A stretch of DNA of 64,000 bases from Candidatus Peregrinibacteria bacterium. Lineage in GTDB: Bacteria > Patescibacteriota > Gracilibacteria > UBA1369 > UBA12463. The translations under genes and the position numbers were made by a program. Numbering within the stretch: position 1 is the stretch's first letter; each line of letters begins with the position of its first letter. Positions 9,751 through 54,085 of this stretch are shown here, piece by piece. The notes beneath the pieces are model-generated. The model did not search any database and had not been told where the DNA came from. It was given only the letters and a program-made list of their open reading frames with translations. The stretch is taken from NCBI GenBank assembly GCA_037447365.1, contig JBBIGU010000001.1:9670-73669 (forward strand). The letters are read 5' to 3'.

Positions 9751-10314
9751 ATGTTTCGTTTGTTTTCCCGCGGTCGCCGCGTACGCCACGTTTCATCCCG
9801 CTATTCCATGAGCTCTGCTCCTGTTTTACAGTGCGGTTTTGCTCGACGTACTCATGATAACTCAAGCGTCAGCATGGGTTCTAGTTTGAATATGAGCTCT
9901 AGTATGAATTCTGGTGCTGGTGCACTTCGATCTTCAGATATGTTTTCTGCATTTCAACTTGGTGATTTCAATCCGGTTAAAATGCTTCAGAATATCATGA
10001 AGGGCGATAAGGAAAGTGTGGCGTTGAATCTTGATATTAAACCTTCTTTTTTTATTGTTACGATTGTTGGAGCGATTGCTGTGAGTACGGTTATGACACT
10101 CGTCTTTTCAACACGAGGTGTTACGCAGGGTTACCAACTTCGTGATCTTGAAACCAAAAGTCAGGCTCTCGTTCGTCAAAATGAAGTCATGACGATGGAG
10201 CTCGCCCAGGCACAATCTCTCGATGCCGTTGTTCACAACGATATTCTCCTCAATATGCGTCCTGCTCAGAAAACGTATTACATGAGCGGAAGTAATGCGA
10301 TTGCGAGTCGGTAA
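9751..10314 (+). CDS. FtsL-like bitopic membrane protein (start uncertain)
   Basis: Directly downstream of rsmH, as in dcw clusters. One TM helix (FFIVTIVGAIAVSTVMTLVF) is followed by a short coiled coil (YQLRDLETKSQALVRQNEVMTMELAQ). The true start is probably an internal Met. Confidence 0.5.
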   Translation: MFRLFSRGRRVRHVSSRYSMSSAPVLQCGFARRTHDNSSVSMGSSLNMSSSMNSGAGALRSSDMFSAFQLGDFNPVKMLQNIMKGDKESVALNLDIKPSFFIVTIVGAIAVSTVMTLVFSTRGVTQGYQLRDLETKSQALVRQNEVMTMELAQAQSLDAVVHNDILLNMRPAQKTYYMSGSNAIASR

Positions 10315-10419
10315 TTGATTTACATTAGTTCAGCTTTAGCTGGTTTTTCTGTATTTCTCCAAATTTGACAGATATTGCCGTTGGGGTAGGCTATTGGCAC
10401 GTATTTTTATCTTACGACA

Positions 10420-12996
10420 ATGGCTTCAAATACTGTTTCTTTTGCTTCTCGCGATATTCTTCCTTTGATTGATCAGCTTGGTAGTACTCGAGTTTCGCTC
10501 GATCCTGCTTTGCAAGGGGAGTTAGATAGTGTTCGAAGTCAGTTGGGTCTTACGGAGACAGAGGGTCGTCCTGAAGTTCCGGATGCCATTATAGTGAGTC
10601 AGCGACTTGATCAGCTTTTGAGGGATGTTCGAATGCTTCCGCAGGGTGTTGGAGATGCTTGTCCAACAAATGATGATATTCAAATTGTCGATAATCTCTC
10701 ACTTCGTGGTTCATTTGATGAAATTGCAGCTGGGCTTTTTTCGATCATAGCTCAAGATGGTTTTCATGCTGCTTCTGATTACTATAATCGCCTTGCAATA
10801 TATGATTCCAGGCAAGCTGCGTTTATCTGGAATGCATATATCAATCATCCTGAAATTGCACCTGTTCTTTCTCGGATTGCTGATATTCTTGCACAATCTA
10901 TCCCTGGATCCGATCTTTCCGATCAACAGAAAAAAGAGTTGGCCTATGCTGATATTCAAAAAAATCTTACCCATCTTCCTTCTCAGTATATTACTGCAAA
11001 AACCCCTGCAATGATTTTGCTCGGACGTGTTAAACGAAGTCTTATTGGTTCGTTTATGCATATTGTTACCGATAAGATTGCCGTCGGAGATATGCCTCTT
11101 ATTGCAGGAGGTGAGTTGGTAAAAAATCCGGAACTGTTTCAAAAAAGTTTTGAAGTTGCCGGTTTATTTGAAGACATGGATCAACTTGCATACATGGATA
11201 TGCTTAATAATCCTCTTGGACAAGCGCAAACTGCGAATCCAACTCAGGCTGAGTCGTACTTCCGTCAGCGTGAGGCGATCCCTGAAATGAAGGTTCATAA
11301 TAACTTTGGATACGTGTATTTGAGCCTAGCACAGGCAGAAACGCTTGGATTAAATCCTCAGAAGGACGCCGTTTTTCCATTTAGTTATTACAATGAACAG
11401 TATGTTGCTGTTCCTGCTGGTTTGTATTTCTCAAAGAAGTCTCCTGATGCATTCCGGGCATCTATTGGTCATCTCCATGCTCTTGCTGATGCGTATCCTG
11501 GAACACCTGCTGAAGAGTATTATAACTCTTTGATCGCTTATTATATGTGCGGTGTTGATGAGTCAGCGAATGCATCAGATTCAAAAGATTCAAAAGCTTT
11601 CGTGAAGCAGTATTATGATTTGTGTTATGCATCTGAGCGAGCTTGGGTTCGCTATATTGCTTTTGCAGAAAAAGAACAGCATCAGTTTATTCATATTCAT
11701 CCTTTTGAAAAGTACAGTACAGTTTCTACGAAATCACACGATCTTTCTCTTGGTATTACTAATCCTGCAGAGACGGCGCAGTATGTTGAAAGTAAGCAGC
11801 GTTTTCAGGAAAATGCTTCGAGATTTTTTGAACAAACAGGTATTACTGAGAAACATCCTGAGATGATTGCGGAGACAAGTCGGCTTATTCAGTCTGCCGG
11901 AACAATTTCTCTTAGTGCGCGCTTTTTCTCTGCTATTCCTGGAACGCTCGCTCAAAATATTCCTAACGAAGAAGATGGTCGTCAGGATGGAATTGTCGCA
12001 CTTTTTGATACTGCGTTTGCGAAGGGTGCTATTAAATCTTCTCGTGGACAGGTAACTCGAAGAAGCGATCCAGTTGGTGTTATTGCGGATACGTTCGATC
12101 AGGATATCGACGTTCCGGAGAAATTTATGCTGCATTACATCGGCGTCGTTCTTTCTCATGAACTTAATCATAATGCGTACAAAGGACGTGAGGGAAGTTT
12201 TCAGAGTGATGGTCATGGACTTGAAGTTAAGCTTATCGAAGAGGCAAAAGCTACTGTTGGAATGGCTCTTGCATTTAACGATCCTTACAATCTTTCAGAG
12301 TCTGATCTCACCGAACTTCGATCTTCGATTCTCTTGATGGCAACTTGGTCGATGATGCGACTTCGTCCGCAGTTACGGGCTCAATACACATCTCATCAGT
12401 ATTTCCGTGAGGGTGCCGTGATGCTTGATCATATGATGAAGTCTGGTCTTGTTAAGGTCGTTGGAATGGGGTTGCAGGAAGATGGTAATTTCCAGCCAGT
12501 GAGTGATGCAGGACTTGATGCTGCTGATTTTGAGTTTTTGAGATTTGATTTTACCGATGATGTTTTGAAAGATTTTATTCGACGTTGTGCAGATTTTCTT
12601 AAAGAGCTTTCTGAGCCGTATTATGAAACTCAATTCAAGCCAGATGCTTCGCCTGATAGAGTCGTTCCTGATGTCACGTCTGTCGACTTTTGGCAGGCTC
12701 TTTTGAGAACGTGTTACGATGAGGATATTGCCAAGAAGAGGGCTAATCCAAAATCTACTCCGTCAGATATTGCTGGGCTTGAGGCACGAAAAGATGCAGT
12801 TCGTCTTCCTGCTGATCCTGATATGCTTCCAAAAGTGAGGGCACTTGTTCGCTACTCAGACTTTAGCTCTGTTCAGCGTTTCCGTCAGGCTGTTGCACGA
12901 CAACATCATATTGATCTGACCGATCCATCTCTTGATGAACACGTGAAAGCTGCTCAACAAAAAATTCAGTCAATGTATCCGGCGATTACTGGCTGA
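10420..12996 (+). CDS. large cytoplasmic zinc-metallopeptidase-like protein (HExxH; M49/DPP III-like signature)
   Basis: 858 aa. HELNH at 12157-12171 (aa 580-584) is followed 22 residues later by EEAKAT at 12238-12255. That resembles the two-motif M49 signature. No signal peptide. Confidence 0.6.
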   Translation: MASNTVSFASRDILPLIDQLGSTRVSLDPALQGELDSVRSQLGLTETEGRPEVPDAIIVSQRLDQLLRDVRMLPQGVGDACPTNDDIQIVDNLSLRGSFDEIAAGLFSIIAQDGFHAASDYYNRLAIYDSRQAAFIWNAYINHPEIAPVLSRIADILAQSIPGSDLSDQQKKELAYADIQKNLTHLPSQYITAKTPAMILLGRVKRSLIGSFMHIVTDKIAVGDMPLIAGGELVKNPELFQKSFEVAGLFEDMDQLAYMDMLNNPLGQAQTANPTQAESYFRQREAIPEMKVHNNFGYVYLSLAQAETLGLNPQKDAVFPFSYYNEQYVAVPAGLYFSKKSPDAFRASIGHLHALADAYPGTPAEEYYNSLIAYYMCGVDESANASDSKDSKAFVKQYYDLCYASERAWVRYIAFAEKEQHQFIHIHPFEKYSTVSTKSHDLSLGITNPAETAQYVESKQRFQENASRFFEQTGITEKHPEMIAETSRLIQSAGTISLSARFFSAIPGTLAQNIPNEEDGRQDGIVALFDTAFAKGAIKSSRGQVTRRSDPVGVIADTFDQDIDVPEKFMLHYIGVVLSHELNHNAYKGREGSFQSDGHGLEVKLIEEAKATVGMALAFNDPYNLSESDLTELRSSILLMATWSMMRLRPQLRAQYTSHQYFREGAVMLDHMMKSGLVKVVGMGLQEDGNFQPVSDAGLDAADFEFLRFDFTDDVLKDFIRRCADFLKELSEPYYETQFKPDASPDRVVPDVTSVDFWQALLRTCYDEDIAKKRANPKSTPSDIAGLEARKDAVRLPADPDMLPKVRALVRYSDFSSVQRFRQAVARQHHIDLTDPSLDEHVKAAQQKIQSMYPAITG

Positions 12997-38496: not shown

Positions 38497-41020
38497 AGTC
38501 ATCGAACTCGTCGATAGCTTTCATCATCTCATCGACAACCTCGTCGCTCGGAGTTCCTGTGATCTGACCATCGGTTCCCATGCTGAGAATTTTTGCCGCA
38601 AATGCTGTGGCCTTTCGGCGCTTGTACTGCATAAGTTCTTCGCCCTTCATTTCTTTTCCAGTGTGATCTCGAACGCCATACTGACCAAGTCGTGCTGGTG
38701 AGTCGGTAAACTGTTCTCCATCTTTTTTGAAGCGCTTTCGGTGTTCACGAATATCAACTAGTTTCTTGTTTCGGAAGATGTCAGTTTCATCGAAAATCTG
38801 CATGTCTTTCACCTTTCCAGTCTCTCGATCGAGCATCTGTTCACCATCGCTATACTCAAATAATTCTCCGGAAAGTTCTCCAAACTCAGTGTTGTCGTTG
38901 CTTGCGACACGTGCCTCCATGCCTTGTTTCTTTGTGTGAAGTTCATGCGCATGCGCGCGATCTGCAATCTCAAACAAAAGGTGATTTGCTTGAATCTCTT
39001 CCTCCATTCCTGCCTGATCTTTGACGTGCGAAAGAAGATCTCCAATAAACTGACTATCTGGATTTTCGAGCATTCGAAGCTCTTCGAGACGTTCCATGTT
39101 GGCTTCGTCATCTGGATTGAGTCTTGCGATTTTTTCTCGAATTTCAAGCTCTGCTTGCTGATTTTTCTTTTCACGGAACTCATTTGCCATGTTGAGATAG
39201 GCGTTGAGTTTTGTCTGTTTCTGGAGATTTTTCGTGAGCTCTGTTGCTGCCTCCATACTAGAAAGCGTTCGTTCAAGTTCTGCACCGCCGTCTGGAAGAA
39301 GTGTCTTGAGCATCTCGATACGACCGGTCAAATCTTCTTTATAAAAAGTTGCCTCGTGTGTTTTTCTCACGTCATCAGGCAGTTCGCCGAATACCTCAAG
39401 AACCTTTTCACGCTGCGGATTATCCAAGTCAGAGTCTTCCATAGCTTCTTCCATTTCTTCGACATCCAAGTCCGCAAACCACTCTTCGTATGATTCGACA
39501 CTATCGGGTGAGAGGAGGTGACTTGCTACCATTTTCTTGAGTTTTTCTCCCCAAGCTTCCTTCATATCTTCGCTCTTTTCCATATTGTTTTCGATCTCTT
39601 CAACGAGTTTCGTTCGATCTCTTAAGCGCATCTCGTAGAAGTGCTCATGTTTACTTTGAACATCCTTTGGAAGTGCCTCGAATCGATCTCGAACATCTTT
39701 TCGTCGTGGGTCGTCGAGTGTCGATTTCCCGAGAACGAGTTCCTTTTCTTTGAGGTTGAGTTTCTCAAATTTCGTTTTGTATTTTCCAGCACTTTCTTTT
39801 CCGATGAGTCTTTCTTTTAGCGCAGCATCAAGCTTCTTGTTCCACTTTCCAATTTTATCCATATGCTCACCGCACTCCTTCGCGATTTTCTCTTTATCAG
39901 CATATTCTGCATTCCAAAAATCGTATTGTGCTTGAACATTTGGTGGTGTTGCTTCGTAAGCTTTTGCAAAGCCTTTGAGTGTTTTCTCCACCTCTGCAAA
40001 GCTCTTCACAAACATCTCTAACATCTCTGGTTTTTCTTCTTTTCCGATACTTGAAACGATGAAGCTTTTTTCTTTTGGACTCTGATATTTGGAACCTTGC
40101 CAGAGTGCAATAAGCGTGTCTCTTAAGCCTTTTTTCATGTTCTCGATAACTTCTTTTTTTGCCTTGAGTCCTCGTGCTTTTTTGAGATCTGCTTCATATT
40201 TTTTTTGTGTTTCTGGAGAGAACTTTTTGAAAGTATCCTGAACTGATTTGATGGAGTCTGTTTTTGCATCTTCCTCGAGTTCTGCGAGCATTTTTTTCTG
40301 TTGGTCGAGCGGTGCCTCACGGAAACGAACACTGAGCTGCTTTATTTCTTCGTCACTATAAAGGCCTGACTTCTTCAACGTCTCGGTGACTTTTGCGAAA
40401 CTTTCTACACTTGTTTTGAGCTCTTTGAGGAAGTCTTTCTTTTCGTGACGTCGGAGTTTGTTGAATTGGTCGAAGTAAGCCTTTGACTCTTTGCCATCAC
40501 CAACAACCTTGATGAGCTGATTACGCAGGTCTTGGAGCGATTTAATCTCATCACCAAGCTTTCCTGCCCATTCTTTTTTCTTGTCGACTTTCTGTTCGCG
40601 GAATTGATTCTTGTACTCTTCGAGCGTATCGACGTTACGAGACTTGTCCTTTCCAAAGAGCTCCTTGTTTTTGTCGAGACCTTGGAAGTAATCCTGCGTG
40701 AGTTGGTGTGTGAGTTTGATCGTTTCGTTGATACTCTTCTCAATCGCTGCGAGTTTTTTTGGATCTCGATCTTGGTTTGCGAGCATGAGTTTTTCTTGGA
40801 ACGCCTTTCTTTCTTCTTCGCTCAAAACGGTTCCGTTACTCATTAATTGTTTTCGAGCCGCATTATAAATACCCGTGAACTCTCGATTCTCGGCCATAAT
40901 TGTGGCTGCATCCTTTTTTCCTTTCGATACTGACTCGAGTTGCGAGTCCGCAAATTTCCGGTCGGAGTCTTCGGTATCGGTGTCGAACGCTCGTGCTGCT
41001 GATTCTGGACCTTTTGCCAT
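38480..41020 (-). CDS. large, highly charged (K/E/D-rich), internally repetitive alpha-helical protein of unknown function
   Basis: 846 aa with no TM helix or signal peptide. A recurring module is visible, e.g. LDDPRRKDVRDRFEALPKDVQSKHEHFYEMRL and LDNPQREKVLEVFGELPDDVRKTHEATFYKEDL. The 3' end overlaps comEC by 17 nt. Confidence 0.75.
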   Translation of the reverse strand: MAKGPESAARAFDTDTEDSDRKFADSQLESVSKGKKDAATIMAENREFTGIYNAARKQLMSNGTVLSEEERKAFQEKLMLANQDRDPKKLAAIEKSINETIKLTHQLTQDYFQGLDKNKELFGKDKSRNVDTLEEYKNQFREQKVDKKKEWAGKLGDEIKSLQDLRNQLIKVVGDGKESKAYFDQFNKLRRHEKKDFLKELKTSVESFAKVTETLKKSGLYSDEEIKQLSVRFREAPLDQQKKMLAELEEDAKTDSIKSVQDTFKKFSPETQKKYEADLKKARGLKAKKEVIENMKKGLRDTLIALWQGSKYQSPKEKSFIVSSIGKEEKPEMLEMFVKSFAEVEKTLKGFAKAYEATPPNVQAQYDFWNAEYADKEKIAKECGEHMDKIGKWNKKLDAALKERLIGKESAGKYKTKFEKLNLKEKELVLGKSTLDDPRRKDVRDRFEALPKDVQSKHEHFYEMRLRDRTKLVEEIENNMEKSEDMKEAWGEKLKKMVASHLLSPDSVESYEEWFADLDVEEMEEAMEDSDLDNPQREKVLEVFGELPDDVRKTHEATFYKEDLTGRIEMLKTLLPDGGAELERTLSSMEAATELTKNLQKQTKLNAYLNMANEFREKKNQQAELEIREKIARLNPDDEANMERLEELRMLENPDSQFIGDLLSHVKDQAGMEEEIQANHLLFEIADRAHAHELHTKKQGMEARVASNDNTEFGELSGELFEYSDGEQMLDRETGKVKDMQIFDETDIFRNKKLVDIREHRKRFKKDGEQFTDSPARLGQYGVRDHTGKEMKGEELMQYKRRKATAFAAKILSMGTDGQITGTPSDEVVDEMMKAIDEFDDFKNVA

Positions 41021-48845: not shown

Positions 48846-48990
48846 AAATATTTACTGTATGTATCCGGTAATTTTAAATTTTTAAGGTCAATTAAAATAT
48901 CCGAATATAGTTGAAGTTGATTGATATGATAGTATCATGCTGATAAGCGTGTTGCTATCTGTTAACTCGCAAAATGCATTAAGTGCAAAA

Positions 48991-49018
48991 TTGACAAGCG
49001 TTAAATGCTTGATATACT
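48991..49018 (+). promoter_or_regulatory. candidate sigma-70 promoter
   Basis: TTGACA - 16 nt - TATACT in an AT-rich 490 bp intergenic region. Confidence 0.4.
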
Positions 49019-49049
49019 TGCCTGCAGTAGAAGCAAATTTAACTCTAAT

Positions 49050-49133
49050 ATGATCGATTCTGTTTTAAGCGCATCCTATTTTGGAATGATGATGAGCTCC
49101 ACGAACTTCGTGGTGAGCTCTTCTGGTGTCTAA
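49050..49133 (+). CDS. 27-codon candidate leader peptide (MIDSVLSASYFGMMMSSTNFVVSSSGV)
   Basis: ATG about 25 nt after the predicted TSS. The ORF carries three consecutive Met codons (49086-49094) and overlaps hairpin segments 1 and 2 of an attenuator-like structure. No clear SD. Confidence 0.3.
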   Translation: MIDSVLSASYFGMMMSSTNFVVSSSGV

Positions 49134-49160
49134 GGCAGAATAGAAGATTAATACTCACAT

Positions 49161-49194
49161 TCACGAAGTTCACAAGAACATCGTGAGTTTTTTT
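49161..49194 (+). terminator. candidate attenuator terminator
   Basis: TCACGA-14 nt-TCGTGA, then G and a run of 7 T. Its left arm can instead pair perfectly (10 bp) with 49103-49112. Confidence 0.4.
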
Positions 49195-49214
49195 ATGCAT
49201 AACTTTTATTTATA

Positions 49215-49334
49215 ATGAATTATTTACTGAGAGAGCATGTTCGATTGATTCGTAAAATAGCACGACTTGTTGATGCAAGTGCTGGAACCGTCATGCGATT
49301 TAAAAAAAGAATTTTAATAATTAATTATCTATAA
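49215..49334 (+). CDS. 39-codon ORF with a possible HTH-like segment
   Basis: MNYLLREHVRLIRKIARLVDASAGTVMRFKKRILIINYL. The stop is 2 nt before the next ATG. The region might instead be only promoter/UTR, since a TATAAT lies at 49211-49216. Confidence 0.25.
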   Translation: MNYLLREHVRLIRKIARLVDASAGTVMRFKKRILIINYL

Positions 49335-49336
49335 TA

Positions 49337-50251
49337 ATGAAAACTTTAACACATATTACTGACGTAGGTTCATCTGCACATGATGGTGTCGATTCGAGTG
49401 AGCGAATTAGAAAACAATATTTGAGATTGGGCGTTGAGCCAAGAGTTGTAACTGCTGGTCAATCTCCTTTGCACGTTGCTTTCACTGCTTGTACTGATGT
49501 TTCCTTGAAGGCTCGGGAAAATGTTCAAAAGGTATTAGATCTACTTCAAATAAGCAAATCGGCCTTGTTGCCAACTGCACTTAATAGTGCACCAAGAAAT
49601 GTTGCTAAATCCCAGGCAAATGGACAAGAAGATTATATTTATAGGGTAAGTTCTGGAAATAAAATTGATGAAACATTTCTTATCTATGGGCCTGAAGTGT
49701 TACGATGGGTTTTGGTCTTTCGCGGTAGGGCTGGAGTGGTGGTTGAAAAAATTACTGAAATTCATGGTGTTATTCCAAATACATCGAATGGATCTCAATT
49801 TCGATCTGCTGAACATTTACCTTTAGTACATTTTCTCGAAGTGCATGGAAAGCTTTGCGAAATGTCCGAAAGACAGCCTGTCGAATTAAATGCAATTCCT
49901 GATATCTCTCCGGATGATGGTAGTGTTGTAGTTGTTCCTCCTGATGAGTATGGCAATGGGCGAATTGTAGCTAGGATTGGTACTTTCAGTGAGGTTTTAG
50001 AAAGAAATCGGATTGAAATTGCTGGAATTTCTCCGCGATCTATCGCCGTTAAAAAATCTTTGACCGAAGTTGTTCCCGGTGTGCTTTCTATTTGGCCAAG
50101 CTCAAATCATTTTCCTGATGAAACCCTTGGGGTATTAAATATTGGTACTAGATGGAGTAGTGGGTCAACAAAAACAACAAATGAAGAGGTTATTCAATTA
50201 TCGAAAAGACTCTCTAATCAAGTCGGTGAAAGGCATAGGGTTAAAACTTAA
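49337..50251 (+). CDS. hypothetical protein, 304 aa
   Basis: A long ORF with no competing frame. No recognised domain. Confidence 0.65.
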   Translation: MKTLTHITDVGSSAHDGVDSSERIRKQYLRLGVEPRVVTAGQSPLHVAFTACTDVSLKARENVQKVLDLLQISKSALLPTALNSAPRNVAKSQANGQEDYIYRVSSGNKIDETFLIYGPEVLRWVLVFRGRAGVVVEKITEIHGVIPNTSNGSQFRSAEHLPLVHFLEVHGKLCEMSERQPVELNAIPDISPDDGSVVVVPPDEYGNGRIVARIGTFSEVLERNRIEIAGISPRSIAVKKSLTEVVPGVLSIWPSSNHFPDETLGVLNIGTRWSSGSTKTTNEEVIQLSKRLSNQVGERHRVKT

Positions 50252-50414
50252 AAACTTGTGAAATCAGAAAAGTCAAATATGTTGCGAGCAGACTTGTATT
50301 AACTTTTCGAAGCATTGCTAACCCGTTCTTTATATTTTCTTATATTACGCCTTGCTTCATCCAACTATTTTTGATCTCCCGTTTTTTGCACAGAATCATT
50401 CAGTGAATCGCCGG

Positions 50415-51065
50415 TTAGGCTTTGTTCTTTAATACTTTTGCGAATCTCATGACTCCGTAGAGTATGAGTAAGCTTCCGACTGTTGTGTTTAATATTTGAA
50501 TGAGGGATGTTGGCACCGTTTTCTTTACTAATGAAAATACGATTACTGATGTTCCCATGAATAACAAGGTTGCGAGTCCTACCGACAAGCCAAATATGAG
50601 CAACTCTCGTTTTGTGTAATTATATTCAATCGCTTTTGCTGTGAATAAACTTGTATACCAAATAATAGTCATTGGGCTGGAGATGGTGAGTAGAAAAGTT
50701 GCAGAAAAGCTCGCAAGAAGGCTTGAAGACTGAATAACTGAGGTCGTTGAAATGTTTGCACCTGATACACCTTTGACAATGATCAGTCCGAAAATAACCA
50801 AGACAACTGAACTGATAATTCCGAATGCTTTTTTGATATTCTTTTTTTCGAGCAACTTCCCAATGCCAAGAATGGCGAGTGATATGTACAATACATCTAC
50901 GAGCGTAACTGCTGCTACAGCAACAAGTCCATCGTAAATCGACCTCTGCAATGCAAGGTTTATGATGAAAAAGAAAACTGGACCAATCGCCGTTTGAAGT
51001 ATCAGCCCTGTTAGTAATCCATTTGCGAATACTCTCATGGTTTTATTATAGCTGTTTTCAAGCAT
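50415..51065 (-). CDS. LysE/RhtB-type amino-acid exporter family protein
   Basis: LLTGLILQTAIGPVFFFIINLAL ... LVDVLYISLAILG and six hydrophobic segments. I chose the start at M24 (or M33 at 51038), because the track start at 51134 would read through palindromic element E1. Confidence 0.7.
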   Translation of the reverse strand: MLENSYNKTMRVFANGLLTGLILQTAIGPVFFFIINLALQRSIYDGLVAVAAVTLVDVLYISLAILGIGKLLEKKNIKKAFGIISSVVLVIFGLIIVKGVSGANISTTSVIQSSSLLASFSATFLLTISSPMTIIWYTSLFTAKAIEYNYTKRELLIFGLSVGLATLLFMGTSVIVFSLVKKTVPTSLIQILNTTVGSLLILYGVMRFAKVLKNKA

Positions 51066-51068
51066 GGC

Positions 51069-51184
51069 ATCTAACGTTTCGGCATATACGATGTTTGGTA
51101 GGGCTATAATATCGCGAAGCGGTAGCCCTGCCAAATATGGGCGGAGCGACCATCGGGAGCGTAGCTGTATATGCCGTGTTATAT
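51069..51184 (-). repeat. attC-like nested palindrome E1 (116 bp)
   Basis: The gene strand reads ATATAAC-A-CGGCATATAC ... inner hairpin TTGGCAGGGCTA/TAGCCCTACCAA ... GTATATGCCG-AAAC-GTTAGAT. It is homologous by eye to E2 and E3. Confidence 0.6.
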
Positions 51185-51192
51185 GCTGTAAG

Positions 51193-51804
51193 CTAAAAAG
51201 GACTAAATTCTCCTAATTCTAAATTATTATTTTGGGCGATAGATTCTAAATTCTTTTTAAATACATAAAAATCCTCGGCGTTTTTAATGCTCGAAAATTC
51301 TGATTTTAAAACCAGTCTTTCATGTTCATCAACATATGGGCTGACTATGCTAATTGATTTTTCTGAATATGTGATTATTTGGTTTACATAACTGTACTCC
51401 ACAATAAATATATACAAAAAAGCGATAGCGAAGATTGAAATGAAACATGTGAAATAATAACCCTTCTTAGATTTTATAAAATTTGAAATTGCAATATCCC
51501 ATTTTGATTTTTTATCCTTTACATGCGGATGATGAGTGATCAATCTTTGATATAACATTACTAAAACAAGTATAAGTATTAACATTACAAATAATGATGG
51601 AAATTCATGAAATCCATCCGAAGCTTTTTTGTATATATTGTCTTTATAGTTTAGGAATATATGACTCATCAATTCTATGGTCCATATTCCAACAAAATGA
51701 AAGACTGGTTTTAGTATCCCTTCCCATAGCCCATTACCTATAGCGCCGAGAAATAATGTACCAATTACTCCGAGGCTGTACTTAAGTGTTTTATTTAGTT
51801 TCAT
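51193..51804 (-). CDS. hypothetical membrane protein, 203 aa (cassette-like ORF E)
   Basis: AT-rich ORF with 3-4 TM segments, flanked by 22 bp inverted repeats (51178-51199 and 51809-51830). Confidence 0.65.
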   Translation of the reverse strand: MKLNKTLKYSLGVIGTLFLGAIGNGLWEGILKPVFHFVGIWTIELMSHIFLNYKDNIYKKASDGFHEFPSLFVMLILILVLVMLYQRLITHHPHVKDKKSKWDIAISNFIKSKKGYYFTCFISIFAIAFLYIFIVEYSYVNQIITYSEKSISIVSPYVDEHERLVLKSEFSSIKNAEDFYVFKKNLESIAQNNNLELGEFSPF

Positions 51805-51823
51805 ATAATTTTTAGCTTATGGT

Positions 51824-51941
51824 ATATAACGTCCGCGCATATGCAAAGTTGTTGCGCGGTATAATTTAGCGCGGAGCGCTTCACCGCGCAACAATTTGGG
51901 TGAGCGACTGTAAGGAGCGAACTGCATATGCGCTGTTAAGT
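51824..51941 (-). repeat. attC-like nested palindrome E2 (118 bp)
   Basis: The gene strand reads ACTTAAC-A-GCGCATATGCA ... inner hairpin ATTGTTGCGCGGT/ACCGCGCAACAAC ... TGCATATGCGC-GGAC-GTTATAT. Confidence 0.6.
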
Positions 51942-51948
51942 GATGTGC

Positions 51949-52383
51949 TTATTTCAACTTGATTGAACGATCACTTAATTTTGATTTTTGCCCGTCTTTA
52001 TCGGTAATAAATATATCCTCTTTCGTAATTTCAAATGTGTAAGTGTCATCTTTTGCCACGACGTGGTTTTCTGTTTTTTCAACTACTTCATATTCTTTTA
52101 GATCAAGATTTACTATCGATGATCCAGTAATTACAACTTCTCTTGCATAAAATTTTGAAGATTCACCGAATGACGAATTATCGAAGAAGTGGATGTAAAA
52201 TACTGTATTCCAGTCTTTTGGAGCCTCGTAGTTGATAGCCTCTAAGAAACCATGAGCATCAATTTCATTGAAATTCCATTTTACGTCCTTAGCAACATAT
52301 AGATTTGTCGGTTGAAAAAACAGAAAAAACACATTTGCTACGGCTGAAATTATGAGGGCAAAAATCAAAATTTTCTTATTCAT
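51949..52383 (-). CDS. hypothetical exported/anchored protein, 144 aa (cassette-like ORF D)
   Basis: I set the start at MNKKILIFALIISAVANVFFLFF (signal/anchor); the track GTG start at 52437 lies inside element E3. Flanked by 24 bp inverted repeats (51935-51958 and 52419-52442). Confidence 0.65.
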   Translation of the reverse strand: MNKKILIFALIISAVANVFFLFFQPTNLYVAKDVKWNFNEIDAHGFLEAINYEAPKDWNTVFYIHFFDNSSFGESSKFYAREVVITGSSIVNLDLKEYEVVEKTENHVVAKDDTYTFEITKEDIFITDKDGQKSKLSDRSIKLK

Positions 52384-52435
52384 ATTGTAGTTATTAGGAT
52401 TACTTTGTGAATTGCACTGTTGAAATAAGCATTTC

Positions 52436-52804
52436 ACTTAACGTTCCGGGCTAGCCGATGTTTTGCGGCGGTATAATGTCTGGGCGGAGCCCAACACCGT
52501 CGCAAAATATGGGGGAACGAGTTAAAAAAACGTTTTGAATAGCCAAATAAAAAACATGATATTTCCAGCTATAAATGCGATAAAACCGTACCCGCCAACA
52601 AGTTGCCCGAAATGATGATCTGAGTTCGAGATAGATTTGTCTATCTTTCCATAGTTGTCACTATGCACTTTAAAAATATGAAATGCACTTGCCATACTCA
52701 AAAACCCTATAATTATGAGCAATAATGATTCGACGCCATTCATGTTTTTTTATTGTTAAATAATAAGTTTTTTTAGCTCGCTCACCGGCTAGCCCGTGTT
52801 AAGT
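52436..52804 (-). repeat. attC-like element E3, expanded to 369 bp by an internal insertion carrying ORF C
   Basis: The gene strand reads ACTTAAC-A-CGGGCTAGCCG ... [ORF C] ... inner hairpin ATTTTGCGACGGT/ACCGCCGCAAAAC-AT-CGGCTAGCCCG-GAAC-GTTAAGT. Confidence 0.55.
52522..52743 (-). CDS. small two-TM-helix membrane protein, 73 aa (ORF C, inside E3)
   Basis: MNGVESLLLIIIGFLSMASAF ... GYGFIAFIAGNIMFFIWLF, preceded by an A-rich leader. Confidence 0.5.
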   Translation of the reverse strand: MNGVESLLLIIIGFLSMASAFHIFKVHSDNYGKIDKSISNSDHHFGQLVGGYGFIAFIAGNIMFFIWLFKTFF

Positions 52805-52821
52805 GGTGTGTTTGCCGGGCG

Positions 52822-53463
52822 TCATTTTTTCTTTATCACTGATGTTTCGGAATATTCCCATATTTCCTGCATGGCTTCAGTTGGCATAAGCTCATTGGGA
52901 ATCTCGGCTGGATTTTTCGGTTTAAAAAGAAGCAATTTATGTCCATCTGTATCAGGTATATAACAAAAAATCGCAGATAGCCAGCTTCCTAAAATTTTAT
53001 TGTCCTGTTTAGCTTTTTTCTCTGGGTGAAAGCCGCGTGGACCATTATATATCGTTTTTCCACCTCGTATTACTGTAATCCATGGACCGAATGCAGCCTT
53101 CAATACCATTCGTGAATCTGCATAAGAATCATCAAGAATGAGATATAAAATTTTAGGAAGTTTTGTGTCAAAATCCTTCAATTGTTTTTTTGAGCCATCA
53201 ATTGCGCCTTGAATCGCTTTGTCTATTGTAATTCGATGAACATGTTCTAAGTCACTACTTGGTGAGTATTTGATGAGTTTTATTTCTGCAAGTGCGATTT
53301 TTTGTTTCTCTCGCAAAATCCAGCCGTCGGGTATTGTACCTTTTTTATCTTTTCGAATTTTTCTTAATTTTAAACCCAGCGACGGGAAGAATTTTTTTCT
53401 CAGAAAATCTTCAGCGTATTCGCCACTTTTTTTATGCCAACTGAAGCGTTTTGTTATTCTCAT
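52822..53463 (-). CDS. hypothetical protein, 213 aa (cassette-like ORF B); weak PD-(D/E)xK-like pattern
   Basis: AT-rich ORF flanked by 23 bp inverted repeats (52798-52820 and 53471-53493). IPDGW ... AEIKL could be a PD...ExK nuclease motif (weak, by eye). Confidence 0.6.
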   Translation of the reverse strand: MRITKRFSWHKKSGEYAEDFLRKKFFPSLGLKLRKIRKDKKGTIPDGWILREKQKIALAEIKLIKYSPSSDLEHVHRITIDKAIQGAIDGSKKQLKDFDTKLPKILYLILDDSYADSRMVLKAAFGPWITVIRGGKTIYNGPRGFHPEKKAKQDNKILGSWLSAIFCYIPDTDGHKLLLFKPKNPAEIPNELMPTEAMQEIWEYSETSVIKKK

Positions 53464-53486
53464 AGATTAAGCCCAGTAAACATTTC

Positions 53487-53534
53487 ACTTAACTCAATTC
53501 TATACGAAAACATTTCGTATAGAAAACCTTAATC
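53487..53534 (-). repeat. reduced attC-like/terminator element E4 at the suf-proximal end of the array
   Basis: The gene strand reads GATTAAG-GTT-TTCTATACGAAA-tgt-TTTCGTATAGAA-TTGA-GTTAAGT. The 12 bp hairpin probably also terminates the suf operon. The GTTRRRY box is perfect; the opposite box is degenerate. Confidence 0.45.
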
Positions 53535-53554
53535 CGGCTTTAAATTCCCTATAA

Positions 53555-54085
53555 TTAAAAATTAAACAACATATCTCTCACGTCTGGTTTCATTCTATCG
53601 GGGCTCCAGGCGGGGTCCCAGACGATGACGACGTCGGCGTGGTCGATTTCGGGGACGATTTGGGGGACGAGGGTTTCGATTTGTTCGACGATCATGGGGC
53701 CGACGGGGCAGCCCATGGAGGTGAGGGTCATGGTGATGATGGCGTGGCGTTTGTTGAGCGTGACGCCATAAATGAGGCCGAGGTCGACGATGCCGATACC
53801 GATTTCTGGGTCGATGATTTCGTTGGTGGCGTCGACGATTTTTTTGACGATAGGATTTTCAGCGCACTGTTCGTCGAGAGTTTTGGTGAGTGGTTTTGGA
53901 TTTTTTTCGTGATCGATGCGCTTCTGGAGGTCCGGGCCGAAGACGGATTTTGGAGTTTTTTTGGTAGTAGGTTTTGAGGAGGTTTTTTTTGTTGGTTTGG
54001 TAATAGCTTTTTTAACAGTAGGTTTTTTGGTAACCTTTTTCGTCGTAGTTTTTGTGACTGATTTCTTGATGATTTTCTTGGCCAT
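53555..54085 (-). CDS. sufT: SufT/DUF59 (MIP18-family) Fe-S assembly protein with a Lys/Thr/Pro-rich N-terminal extension
   Basis: C-terminal DUF59: IIDPEIGIGIVDLGLIYGV ... MTLTSMGCPVGPMI. The N-terminal region of about 65 aa is KK(x)T(x)KK-type low complexity. Confidence 0.8.
   Translation of the reverse strand: MAKKIIKKSVTKTTTKKVTKKPTVKKAITKPTKKTSSKPTTKKTPKSVFGPDLQKRIDHEKNPKPLTKTLDEQCAENPIVKKIVDATNEIIDPEIGIGIVDLGLIYGVTLNKRHAIITMTLTSMGCPVGPMIVEQIETLVPQIVPEIDHADVVIVWDPAWSPDRMKPDVRDMLFNF

Follow-up and report, generated by a model that had tools for sequence, protein, structure and literature searches.

Integrons are defined by IntI, an integrase whose special domain reads the extrahelical bases of folded attC sites by contacting them. 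Their crossover lies in G/TT (a slash, here and below, marks a crossover or junction) and leaves the TTRRRY half of a site with the following cassette, which is why integron cassettes show a match of boxes across the cassette. The attC sites of the Vibrio superintegron, the Vibrio cholerae repeats (VCRs), are ~120 nt long. Here we describe a locus in 64,000 nucleotides of Candidatus Peregrinibacteria DNA (contig JBBIGU010000001.1, positions 9,670 to 73,669; hereafter the window), where co-oriented genes of no recognised family are separated by three attC-like elements, E1 to E3. The segment 50415-53534 is probably an orphan cassette array. It would belong to a system of integron-like, site-specific recombination found widely across Patescibacteria, the Candidate Phyla Radiation (CPR), and the variable region reaches to about 48846. 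The system is apparently undescribed: an integron-like platform with a recombinase without the IntI domain and a distinct, conserved class of folded sites.

The likeness to chromosomal integrons and to clusters of attC sites lacking integron integrases (CALINs) extends to co-oriented short, mostly orphan open reading frames (ORFs), each followed by an imperfect palindrome of 110-130 nt with AAC...GTT at its ends, to folding of the bottom strand, to an R' half-site that belongs to the next cassette, and to an attI-like site by a divergent tyrosine recombinase gene, with many arrays lacking an integrase. As in integrons, sites are very similar within a lineage and cassette content differs between close relatives. 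The differences from integrons lie in the recombinase, which lacks the 42-aa IntI-specific domain, in an attI-like site with repeated TATACGAA motifs, in element bodies that are near-identical in bins assigned to different phyla, and in sites that, unlike attC, form a three-way junction with spacers of 1 nt and 4 nt, a 3-nt bulge and no L-box extrahelical bases. An earlier first-pass annotation, made from the letters of the window, had proposed a CALIN-type cluster. The window does hold attC-like sites without an integrase, and the array is integron-like and resembles a CALIN, yet it is not a canonical integron.

The system also recalls CTX phage at dif, an integrative mobile element exploiting Xer (IMEX), in its Xer-like recombinase without the IntI domain and in a folded single strand that would meet a double-stranded chromosomal site, with two binding arms around an unpaired centre and, presumably, exchange of one strand. 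Unlike IMEXs, the loci hold arrays of many single-gene cassettes, each with a structured site; the junction lies outside the palindrome, and the site adjoins the recombinase gene and, where this could be judged, is not at the terminus. The pdif modules of Acinetobacter plasmids are similar in that gene modules bounded by inverted, recombinase-related repeats are shuffled between replicons. However, pdif sites are double-stranded, 28 bp long, of the dif type and of alternating orientation, whereas the elements described here are folded, co-oriented, ~116 nt long and have covarying stems.

Smyshlyaev et al. 2021 (PMC8138268) described a 'Cand' subgroup of Xer-related recombinases from candidate phyla that are presumed to replace Xer. 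The cognate recombinases of our system share with this subgroup the character of simple, Xer-like proteins of ~270 aa specific to candidate phyla, and they may be 'Cand' proteins that have so far been taken for Xer replacements; unlike presumed replacements, they stand in a fixed integron-like geometry beside cassette arrays. A full-text search of the literature on integrons in Patescibacteria/CPR lineages and on tyrosine recombinases of CPR and DPANN organisms yielded no description of the system. The sequences GGTATAAT and AAATATGGG, as well as the accessions of the archaeal loci found here, are absent from the supplementary tables of a study of archaeal integrons, which include nine tested attC sequences (Ghaly et al. 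2022, PMC9668308). The arrays may already be present, unremarked, in CALIN catalogues.

Elements and cassettes of the window

The features of the variable region are given below; related loci are designated by L and a number.

51069-51184: attC-like element E1; the plus strand folds; 104.3 bits with the R1 covariance model.
51824-51941: attC-like element E2; the plus strand folds; R1 113.8 bits on the plus and 13.7 on the minus strand.
52436-52804: attC-like element E3, in a left (52436-52521) and a right part (52776-52804); the plus strand folds; nhmmer E = 1.8e-23, R1 46.6 bits.
53494-53534, unstranded: attI-like site on the chromosomal side of the first junction; core as in related loci; no recombinase gene.
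52442-53492, minus strand: cassette 1, ORF213 with E3; terminal inverted repeats; recurs in L130.
52522-52775, minus strand: nested module in the variable arm of E3; AT-rich inverted repeats (I1, I2) and a 73-aa ORF (52522-52743).
51830-52441, minus strand: cassette 2, ORF144 with E2; terminal inverted repeats; circularised fold.
51075-51829, minus strand: cassette 3, ORF203 with E1; terminal inverted repeats; circularised fold.
50415-51074, minus strand: cassette 4, a LysE-family exporter gene (50415-51038; Pfam LysE, E = 1e-17); R'' box only.
48846-50414, unstranded: remodelled distal end of the variable region; ORF304 and a candidate small-RNA gene; GC 0.375-0.381.

E1, E2 and the split E3 are homologous, co-oriented nested palindromes of ~116 nt between minus-strand orphan ORFs. 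On re-reading, their coordinates, boxes and layout were as the first-pass annotation had described them, and the mutual resemblance it reported was borne out by nhmmer E-values of 5e-33 to 2e-23 and by R1, which matched all three. On the gene strand the R'' and R' boxes are ATATAAC (51184-51178) and GTTAGAT (51075-51069) in E1, ACTTAAC and GTTATAT in E2, and ACTTAAC and GTTAAGT in E3, with spacers of 1 nt and 4 nt as against ~5 and 5-6 nt in canonical attC. E3 had been delimited as a single stretch; it is indeed one element, but its variable arm is split at 52522-52775 by the nested module with the 73-aa ORF, across which the outer-stem arms GGGCTAGCCG and CGGCTAGCCC are paired. No further copies were found in the 64 kb by profile search, short-word BLAST or an unfiltered covariance model, the next-best R1 match (E = 0.12) being merely the reverse strand of E2. 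Single-strand folds favoured the real elements over shuffled sequence (z -2.7 to -6.5), with energies on the plus versus the minus strand of -27.2 versus -19.8 kcal/mol for E1 and -32.1 versus -29.2 kcal/mol for E2.

The array is flanked on one side by the suf operon (a sufT-like gene at 53555-54085, NifU and SufS). Its four co-oriented minus-strand ORFs, of 213 aa (52822-53463), 73 aa (52522-52743), 144 aa (51949-52383) and 203 aa (51193-51804), match no family in Pfam, NCBIfam or PADLOC and are set in AT-rich DNA (GC 0.35-0.38 over 49-53 kb versus ~0.45 for the rest of the window), in agreement with their earlier description as AT-rich orphans. An exact-sequence look-up of the ORF213 and SufS proteins gave no record. 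ORF144 has a signal-peptide-like N-terminus and ORF203 encodes a membrane protein; judged by its sequence, the product of the 73-aa ORF looks like a small membrane protein as well.

The limits of the cassettes are set by their ends. A repeat finder located inverted repeats that bracket each ORF, begin at the boxes and extend outward: 28 nt with 75% complementarity in cassette 1 (52798-52825 and 53466-53493; gene-strand boxes R' GTTAAGT, 53493-53487, and R'' ACTTAAC, 52804-52798), 24 nt with 92% in cassette 2 (51935-51958 and 52419-52442) and 22 nt with 86% in cassette 3 (51178-51199 and 51809-51830). Because these repeats bracket the ORFs at the boxes, the R' box of one element matches the R'' box of the next element downstream and not its own R''. 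When the ends of one cassette were joined in silico, the resulting circularised sites folded 9-20 kcal/mol better than the sites in their array context (E2, -51.8 versus -32.1 kcal/mol; E1, -40.8 versus -32.1 kcal/mol).

Cassette 4 lacks an attC-like body and keeps the R'' box GCCTAAC of the gene strand (GTTAGGC on the plus strand, 50415-50421). Its LysE gene had been regarded as a flanking gene, a view that had to be given up: the gene and its flanks are 80% identical in nucleotide sequence to copies in a Buchananbacteria metagenome-assembled genome (MAG; L017:4739-5396) and in a bin labelled Zixibacteria (L027:2559-3240), where they sit between E elements with the boxes GTTAGGC and GCCTAAC. 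The LysE cassette is thus found in three unrelated bins. The ORF213 family has only 26 members among 5.8 billion proteins. A homologue with 81% identity lies in another genomic context in L130, beside yebC/ruvC, with identical boxes and an E downstream of it. In L099 the first cassette beside the recombinase carries another LysE-family gene.

Turnover of the cassettes was apparent from relatives. Contig JBAYUX010000011 (L004 and L127) belongs to a close relative with a 96% identical SufT protein, and its flanks match the window with 91% nucleotide identity on the suf side and 82% on the side of orf153 and orf181. Between these flanks the attI-like site is unchanged, but the relative's array consists of a membrane ORF of 86 aa and an ORF of 1220 aa, each followed by an E, and apart from the E elements themselves it has no cassette in common with the window. 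In L110 an E3-type split element with a different nested ORF lies directly against orf153. In L128, which is more distantly related, sufT is followed neither by an array nor by an attI-like site. The ORF content of this slot differs between the window, L127/L004 and L110; strict conservation of the ORF order had been named in advance as a sign against cassettes. A region of L127 (1190-2125, equal to L004:1278-2213) between the attI-like site and sufT holds a 311-aa ORF, read as a putative S-adenosylmethionine methyltransferase-like protein, that is not in the window; its breakpoint lies ~10 nt past the attI hairpin.

The distal end at 48846-50414, with the orphan ORF304 (49337-50251, plus strand), has no counterpart in L127 and L110, in which nothing separates the last E from orf153. 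It includes a candidate small-RNA gene at ~48991-49212 on the plus strand, with the best promoter match of the region (TTGACA, a 16-nt spacer and TATACT; 11/12 plus TG) and a predicted structured transcript of ~170 nt (-48.7 kcal/mol, z = -3.6) that ends in a hairpin and seven U. No Rfam match was found for 48991-49212, and the ~220 nt of this small-RNA-like sequence are 81% identical to L070:2020-2236, inside the E array of a Magasanikbacteria MAG.

Two other functions for the palindromes were considered and rejected for the window. The first-pass annotation had noted a conserved loop motif with a perfect -10 hexamer. The motif, GGTATAAT, is present in the elements, but the promoter reading of its TATAAT did not stand, as the window copies have neither a -35 box nor a TG extension and a promoter scan made no call at them. 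A terminator reading was set aside in the same way, since no T-runs lie 3' of the hairpins and the scan called no terminator at any E in the window. Of the Rfam families, one tRNA alone reached its gathering score in the window, and nothing relevant was found at E <= 1 within 48850-53600.

The element family and its fold

Related elements were sought with an exact pattern built from the invariant positions of E1-E3, using one genome per species (GTDB). At least 119 loci with the element exist, against ~7 expected by our own chance estimate, and the counts of copies, spacing, orientation and recombinases that follow refer to the 119 loci listed. Most come from Patescibacteria (Peregrinibacteria/Peribacteria, Gracilibacteria, Uhrbacteria, Magasanikbacteria, Saccharibacteria and others); some lie in bins labelled DPANN archaea, Methanoperedens, Gammaproteobacteria, Omnitrophota and Zixibacteria. 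The labels outside Patescibacteria may reflect mis-binning, and the Pfam families encoded in 8 kb of L098, the 'archaeon' contig, are compatible with an archaeal or a non-archaeal origin.

An nhmmer profile made from the matches detected 279 copies, up to 11 per 8-kb block, with a median spacing of 769 bp. Copies share one orientation in 118 of the 119 loci (mixed in one). Of 146 intervals, 126 have their longest ORF on the strand opposite to E(+), which is also the arrangement of the window; the median ORF length is 164 aa. The first-pass annotation had asked whether copies elsewhere follow co-oriented small ORFs, as they mostly do, and had named random genome-wide dispersal as the pattern that would refute it; within the loci listed, the copies are instead clustered and co-oriented. 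Only three pairs among 102 cassettes are homologous between loci, so that the pool of cassette genes is very diverse. The 12-nt flank to the right of one element and that to the left of the next match at 7.8 of 12 positions (p = 9e-18), while the two flanks of the same element match at 4.6 of 12, equal to random pairs (4.6 of 12). Since neighbouring flanks pair and an element's own flanks do not, the family bears the cassette-boundary signature of integrons.

TAAC...GTTA was invariant in 164 full-length elements, partly by a requirement of their selection. The strict consensus RYYYAAC / GTTRRRY fits only ~26% of the boxes, with the AAC/GTT core invariant. The body of E1 is 95% identical to that of an element in L001 with different boxes. 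Variants of the Parcubacteria type are shorter: the module made up of TATAAT and the mini-hairpin is missing, but boxes, bulge, the two stems and the variable arm are all retained.

Variation within the bodies was also recorded. More than 20 MAGs with labels of different phyla (including L001, L007, L009, L014, L029, L030 and L044) share one nearly identical body, CTGCGTATGCGATGTTTGCCAGTGGTATAAT...GCATACGCAG, with different boxes each time, which points to either recent wide transfer or mis-binned contigs. The element at L130:3170-3295 has a 5' outer arm (GCGCGTAGCC) and a 3' arm (GCATACACGC) of different types that do not pair, and it looks like a hybrid that arose when two elements exchanged sequence in their conserved inner part; hybrids of this kind may also be present among the 62 copies without a matching outer stem. 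Elements split at the insertion point of E3 occur in L110, L097, L039, L103, L107 and L119. The nested modules in the variable arm (window 52522-52775, L110:165-445 and the other loci just named) consist of a small ORF between AT-rich inverted repeats of ~20 nt that start with GTTAAAAA, always inserted after GAGCGAGC. The nested ORFs of the window and L110 differ at the same position of the same E3-type element, and the modules suggest a second, nested insertion site.

The fold was examined in an alignment (A1) of 54 non-redundant full-length elements. The plus-strand consensus consists of an R stem (TAACG/TGTTA), an 11-bp outer stem set off by a 3-nt bulge on the 5' side, a 15-bp inner stem with an unpaired TATAAT and a small C-GAA-G hairpin at its tip, and a variable G/A-rich arm on the 3' side, the whole forming a three-way junction. 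The apical C-GAA-G loop is that of GCGAAGC, a classic, very stable mini-hairpin motif of DNA. Pairing was found in 96.8% of cells, compared with 29-43% when partners were slid by 1-3 columns, and compensatory double changes occurred in 23 of 33 pairs. The covariation score was 0.58 versus 0.03-0.10 in the slid controls, and 0 of 500 shuffles reached the observed values. In the inner stem, which played no part in the selection of the copies, 12 of 15 pairs had double changes.

The pairing is also specific to one strand. The G8·T141 pair (columns 8/141) is invariant and G29·T86 is present in 46 of 54 sequences; on the other strand such pairs would be C·A mismatches, and thus only the plus strand pairs fully. 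Together with the R1 strand scores and the fold energies, these pairs identify the folding strand as the bottom strand relative to the ORFs, as in attC. The first-pass annotation had proposed folding this strand in search of extrahelical bases, and had assigned attC architecture to the elements. The strand does fold and the AAC...GTT cores are in place, but an L-box with extrahelical bases is not, and neither the spacers nor a proxy attC model (below) support the remainder of that assignment. Across almost all of the window (1-64000) GC skew is positive and AT skew negative, and the genes between ~43.5 and 58.3 kb are mostly on the minus strand; should the plus strand be the leading one, the elements would have their folding strand on the lagging-strand template.

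The attI-like site and the recombinase

A fourth, reduced element (E4) had been annotated next to the suf operon, along with the statement that no obvious attI was present. Both claims are superseded, as E4 aligns with the conserved site of recombinase loci and of L004 and is therefore the attI-like site. Its sequence is TCAA-TTCTATACGAAA-ACA-TTTCGTATAGAA-AACC, with a hairpin of inverted arms at 53498-53524 (-9.6 kcal/mol, z = -5.2), and sufT lies ~20 bp beyond it (stop codon at 53555). The core ATTTCnnnTAAC/TCnnTTCTATRCGAA is shared with the close relative L004 and with related recombinase loci, where it is located 100-150 bp upstream of the recombinase gene (L099, L085, L008, L027, L063, L122, L123 and L125). 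The conserved site between the first cassette and the recombinase gene reads nnnTAAC/TCGTTTCTATRCGAA and has inverted arms of 11-12 bp, with further copies of TATACGAA in inverted or direct orientation. The cassette junction is outside this palindrome, at the TAAC 4-5 nt to its left.

Of the 119 blocks, 20 encode a tyrosine recombinase, 270-300 aa long. Its gene always adjoins the R' end of the array and points away from the cassettes: when the gene is set on the plus strand, all E are on that strand and upstream of it. The six catalytic residues R, K, H, R, H and Y are all conserved. The proteins are 33-38% identical to IntI1, compared with 27% for XerC, and a C-terminal SPL motif is common to the family and IntI1; the IntI1 reference used was verified as 100% identical to plasmid intI1 genes. 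The NCBIfam models XerA_Arch ('tyrosine recombinase/integron integrase') and TIGR02249 (integron integrase) score about equally and both above XerC and XerD, with TIGR02249 matching in two pieces at 187-233 bits, below its cutoff of 265. VchIntIA likewise aligns in two pieces, skipping ~43 residues, and a multiple alignment against IntI1 has a 42-column gap exactly at the IntI-specific domain, as in XerC. The best match of solved structure is the XerA of Pyrococcus (4a8e, E = 2e-42). The first-pass annotation had named the lack of an integron integrase in every related genome as a sign against its reading; an IntI/XerA-like recombinase is encoded at 20 related loci, but without the IntI-specific domain, and no integron integrase in the strict sense was found. 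The family comprises more than 7400 proteins at E <= 1e-30, ~60% identical across CPR classes and named XerC, XerD or 'integron integrase' at source. In a 517-kb Patescibacteria contig (L122:16741-18105 and 10001-10813), the recombinase gene and attI-like site lie ~6 kb from dnaA; the cassette side holds HNH, Y1-transposase, GIY-YIG and orphan genes.

Weighing of the readings, proposed mechanism and implications

Several observations weigh against the integron-like cassette array. As had been noted before, the window has no tyrosine recombinase, as judged by phmmer with IntI1 and XerC and by tblastn with the cognate recombinase. The one weak tblastn match (39512-39820) is a Lys/Glu-rich coiled-coil protein, no recombinase remnants were found in the window or in L127, and a putative remnant in L130 reached only 42% identity over 26 aa (E = 0.1). 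A recombinase without the IntI domain must recognise its sites differently from IntI, and the family size and ~60% identity would also fit a housekeeping Xer exploited by cassettes. The selection of full-length copies by a near-perfect 9-bp outer stem inflates the pairing of helices 2 and 3, just three homologous cassette pairs are available to judge whether bodies and ORFs travel together, and the whole analysis is computational. In addition, a proxy model of canonical attC (R2) found nothing in E1-E3 at E <= 10. R2 was built from nine experimentally validated archaeal attCs (Ghaly et al. 2022, PMC9668308) with their loops trimmed, because a MAFFT/RNAalifold alignment of full-length canonical attCs was too poor to model. 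The covariance-model check proposed by the first-pass annotation was run with this proxy only; the class 1 controls responded, with 3 of ~5 attCs found in the R46 and pFBAOT6 loci at 39-49 bits, and E1-E3 did not.

Measured against the definitions in use, the window has three attC-like sites within 1.7 kb and no recombinase in 64 kb, as a CALIN does, but the sites fail the proxy attC model. By the strict definition of an integron, an IntI with the additional domain is found neither in the window nor in the related loci and the canonical R''-spacer-L''...L'-spacer-R' layout is not recognised by R2, while inverse AAC...GTT cores are present at the site ends. Of the broader integron-like features, the bottom-strand fold, the R' half-site of the downstream cassette and a variable cassette content at the same locus were all observed; an attI with a divergent integrase gene was observed in the related loci, and in the window the core only.

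The nearest alternative is an IMEX-type arrangement, in which the enzyme is a housekeeping Xer of the 'Cand' kind, the TATACGAA palindrome its normal substrate, and the cassettes are small integrative elements that hijack it by a folded single-stranded mimic, in the manner of CTX phage with XerCD at dif; a dedicated integron platform would then not exist. The missing IntI insertion, the closeness to Pyrococcus XerA in structure, the XerA_Arch score about equal to the integron-integrase score, the more than 7400 homologues called XerC or XerD at source, the presumed role of the 'Cand' subgroup (PMC8138268) and the dif-like inverted arms of 11-12 bp at the attI-like site all speak for it. However, at every recombinase locus examined, including the distant Parcubacteria-type ones, the cassette end ATTTCnnnTAAC already adjoins the site, with small orphan genes further on, and the junction is at TAAC 4-5 nt left of the palindrome. 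Neither a site at the terminus nor a crossover in the central spacer of a ~28-bp palindrome was found, the recombinase itself being Xer-like; one copy is ~6 kb from dnaA, away from the terminus, and there is no GC-skew switch at E4 in the window. A more XerC/D-like recombinase co-occurs in one E-carrying MAG (L015), and the identity of the cognate enzymes to IntI1 exceeds that of XerC, with the SPL motif in common. For these reasons we consider the IMEX-type arrangement unlikely.

The elements, as GC-rich intergenic palindromes of ~116 nt that are repeated and highly conserved between genomes, could also be taken for terminators or for selfish palindromes between ordinary resident genes, such as repetitive extragenic palindromes (REPs), bacterial interspersed mosaic elements (BIMEs) or miniature inverted-repeat transposable elements (MITEs). 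This is very improbable, given that only three copies exist in 64 kb, adjacent and co-oriented, and that orientation is uniform in nearly all loci; that the flanks of neighbours pair and own flanks do not, so that the units contain ORFs and are not insertions of the element; and that the ORF content between the same flanking genes is wholly different in a close relative. Terminators are further countered by the missing T-runs and the silent scan. A structured RNA (an antisense small RNA or a 3'-untranslated-region element) with the internal TATAAT as its promoter would explain the G·U-type pairs and the strong covariation, and TATAAT is indeed nearly invariant in Peregrinibacteria-type copies, many of which have a preceding TGG and thus an extended -10. 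Yet a transcript from TATAAT would miss the 5' halves of both stems, the window copies have no TG extension, -35 box or scan call, the Parcubacteria-type variants have no TATAAT module, Rfam gives no match, and the apical loop is a mini-hairpin motif known from DNA. An RNA would also leave the pairing of flanks, the attI-like site and the link to a recombinase unexplained, and we find this reading hardly credible.

Returning to the integron-like cassette array, we infer a mechanism in which the recombinase of ~270 aa, related to IntI and XerA, would join the folded single strand of a cassette to the double-stranded attI-like site nnnTAAC/TCGTTTCTATACGAA... The crossover would be at or beside the invariant TAA/C (G/TT on the gene strand), so that new cassettes would enter next to attI and each cassette would keep its matching ends, and the recombination intermediate would be resolved by replication. 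In the window the recombinase gene would have been lost, with the attI-like core (E4) alone remaining beside sufT, and any further movement of cassettes would then need a recombinase in trans. The cassettes are co-directional with the suf operon and could be expressed by read-through.

We consider the chances about even that Patescibacteria, and perhaps some DPANN archaea, possess a second, previously unrecognised type of integron, distinguished by a recombinase without the IntI domain, an attI with TATACGAA repeats and attC sites with a three-way junction. If the proposed system is real, the IntI domain is not needed for integron-style gene capture, and the recombinases described here are candidate intermediates between Xer recombinases and integron integrases. 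The system itself could be a branch, early or parallel, of the descent of integrons from Xer-like enzymes. Surveys that rely on the canonical attC model and on the intI_Cterm profile may overlook such arrays, and criteria of the IntegronFinder type would miss them or see them only partly. As the elements are short and highly conserved, they are directly testable in E. coli with existing integron recombination assays. CPR bacteria are ultra-small and genome-reduced, and little is understood of their accessory genes; for them the system would constitute a major route of gene gain.

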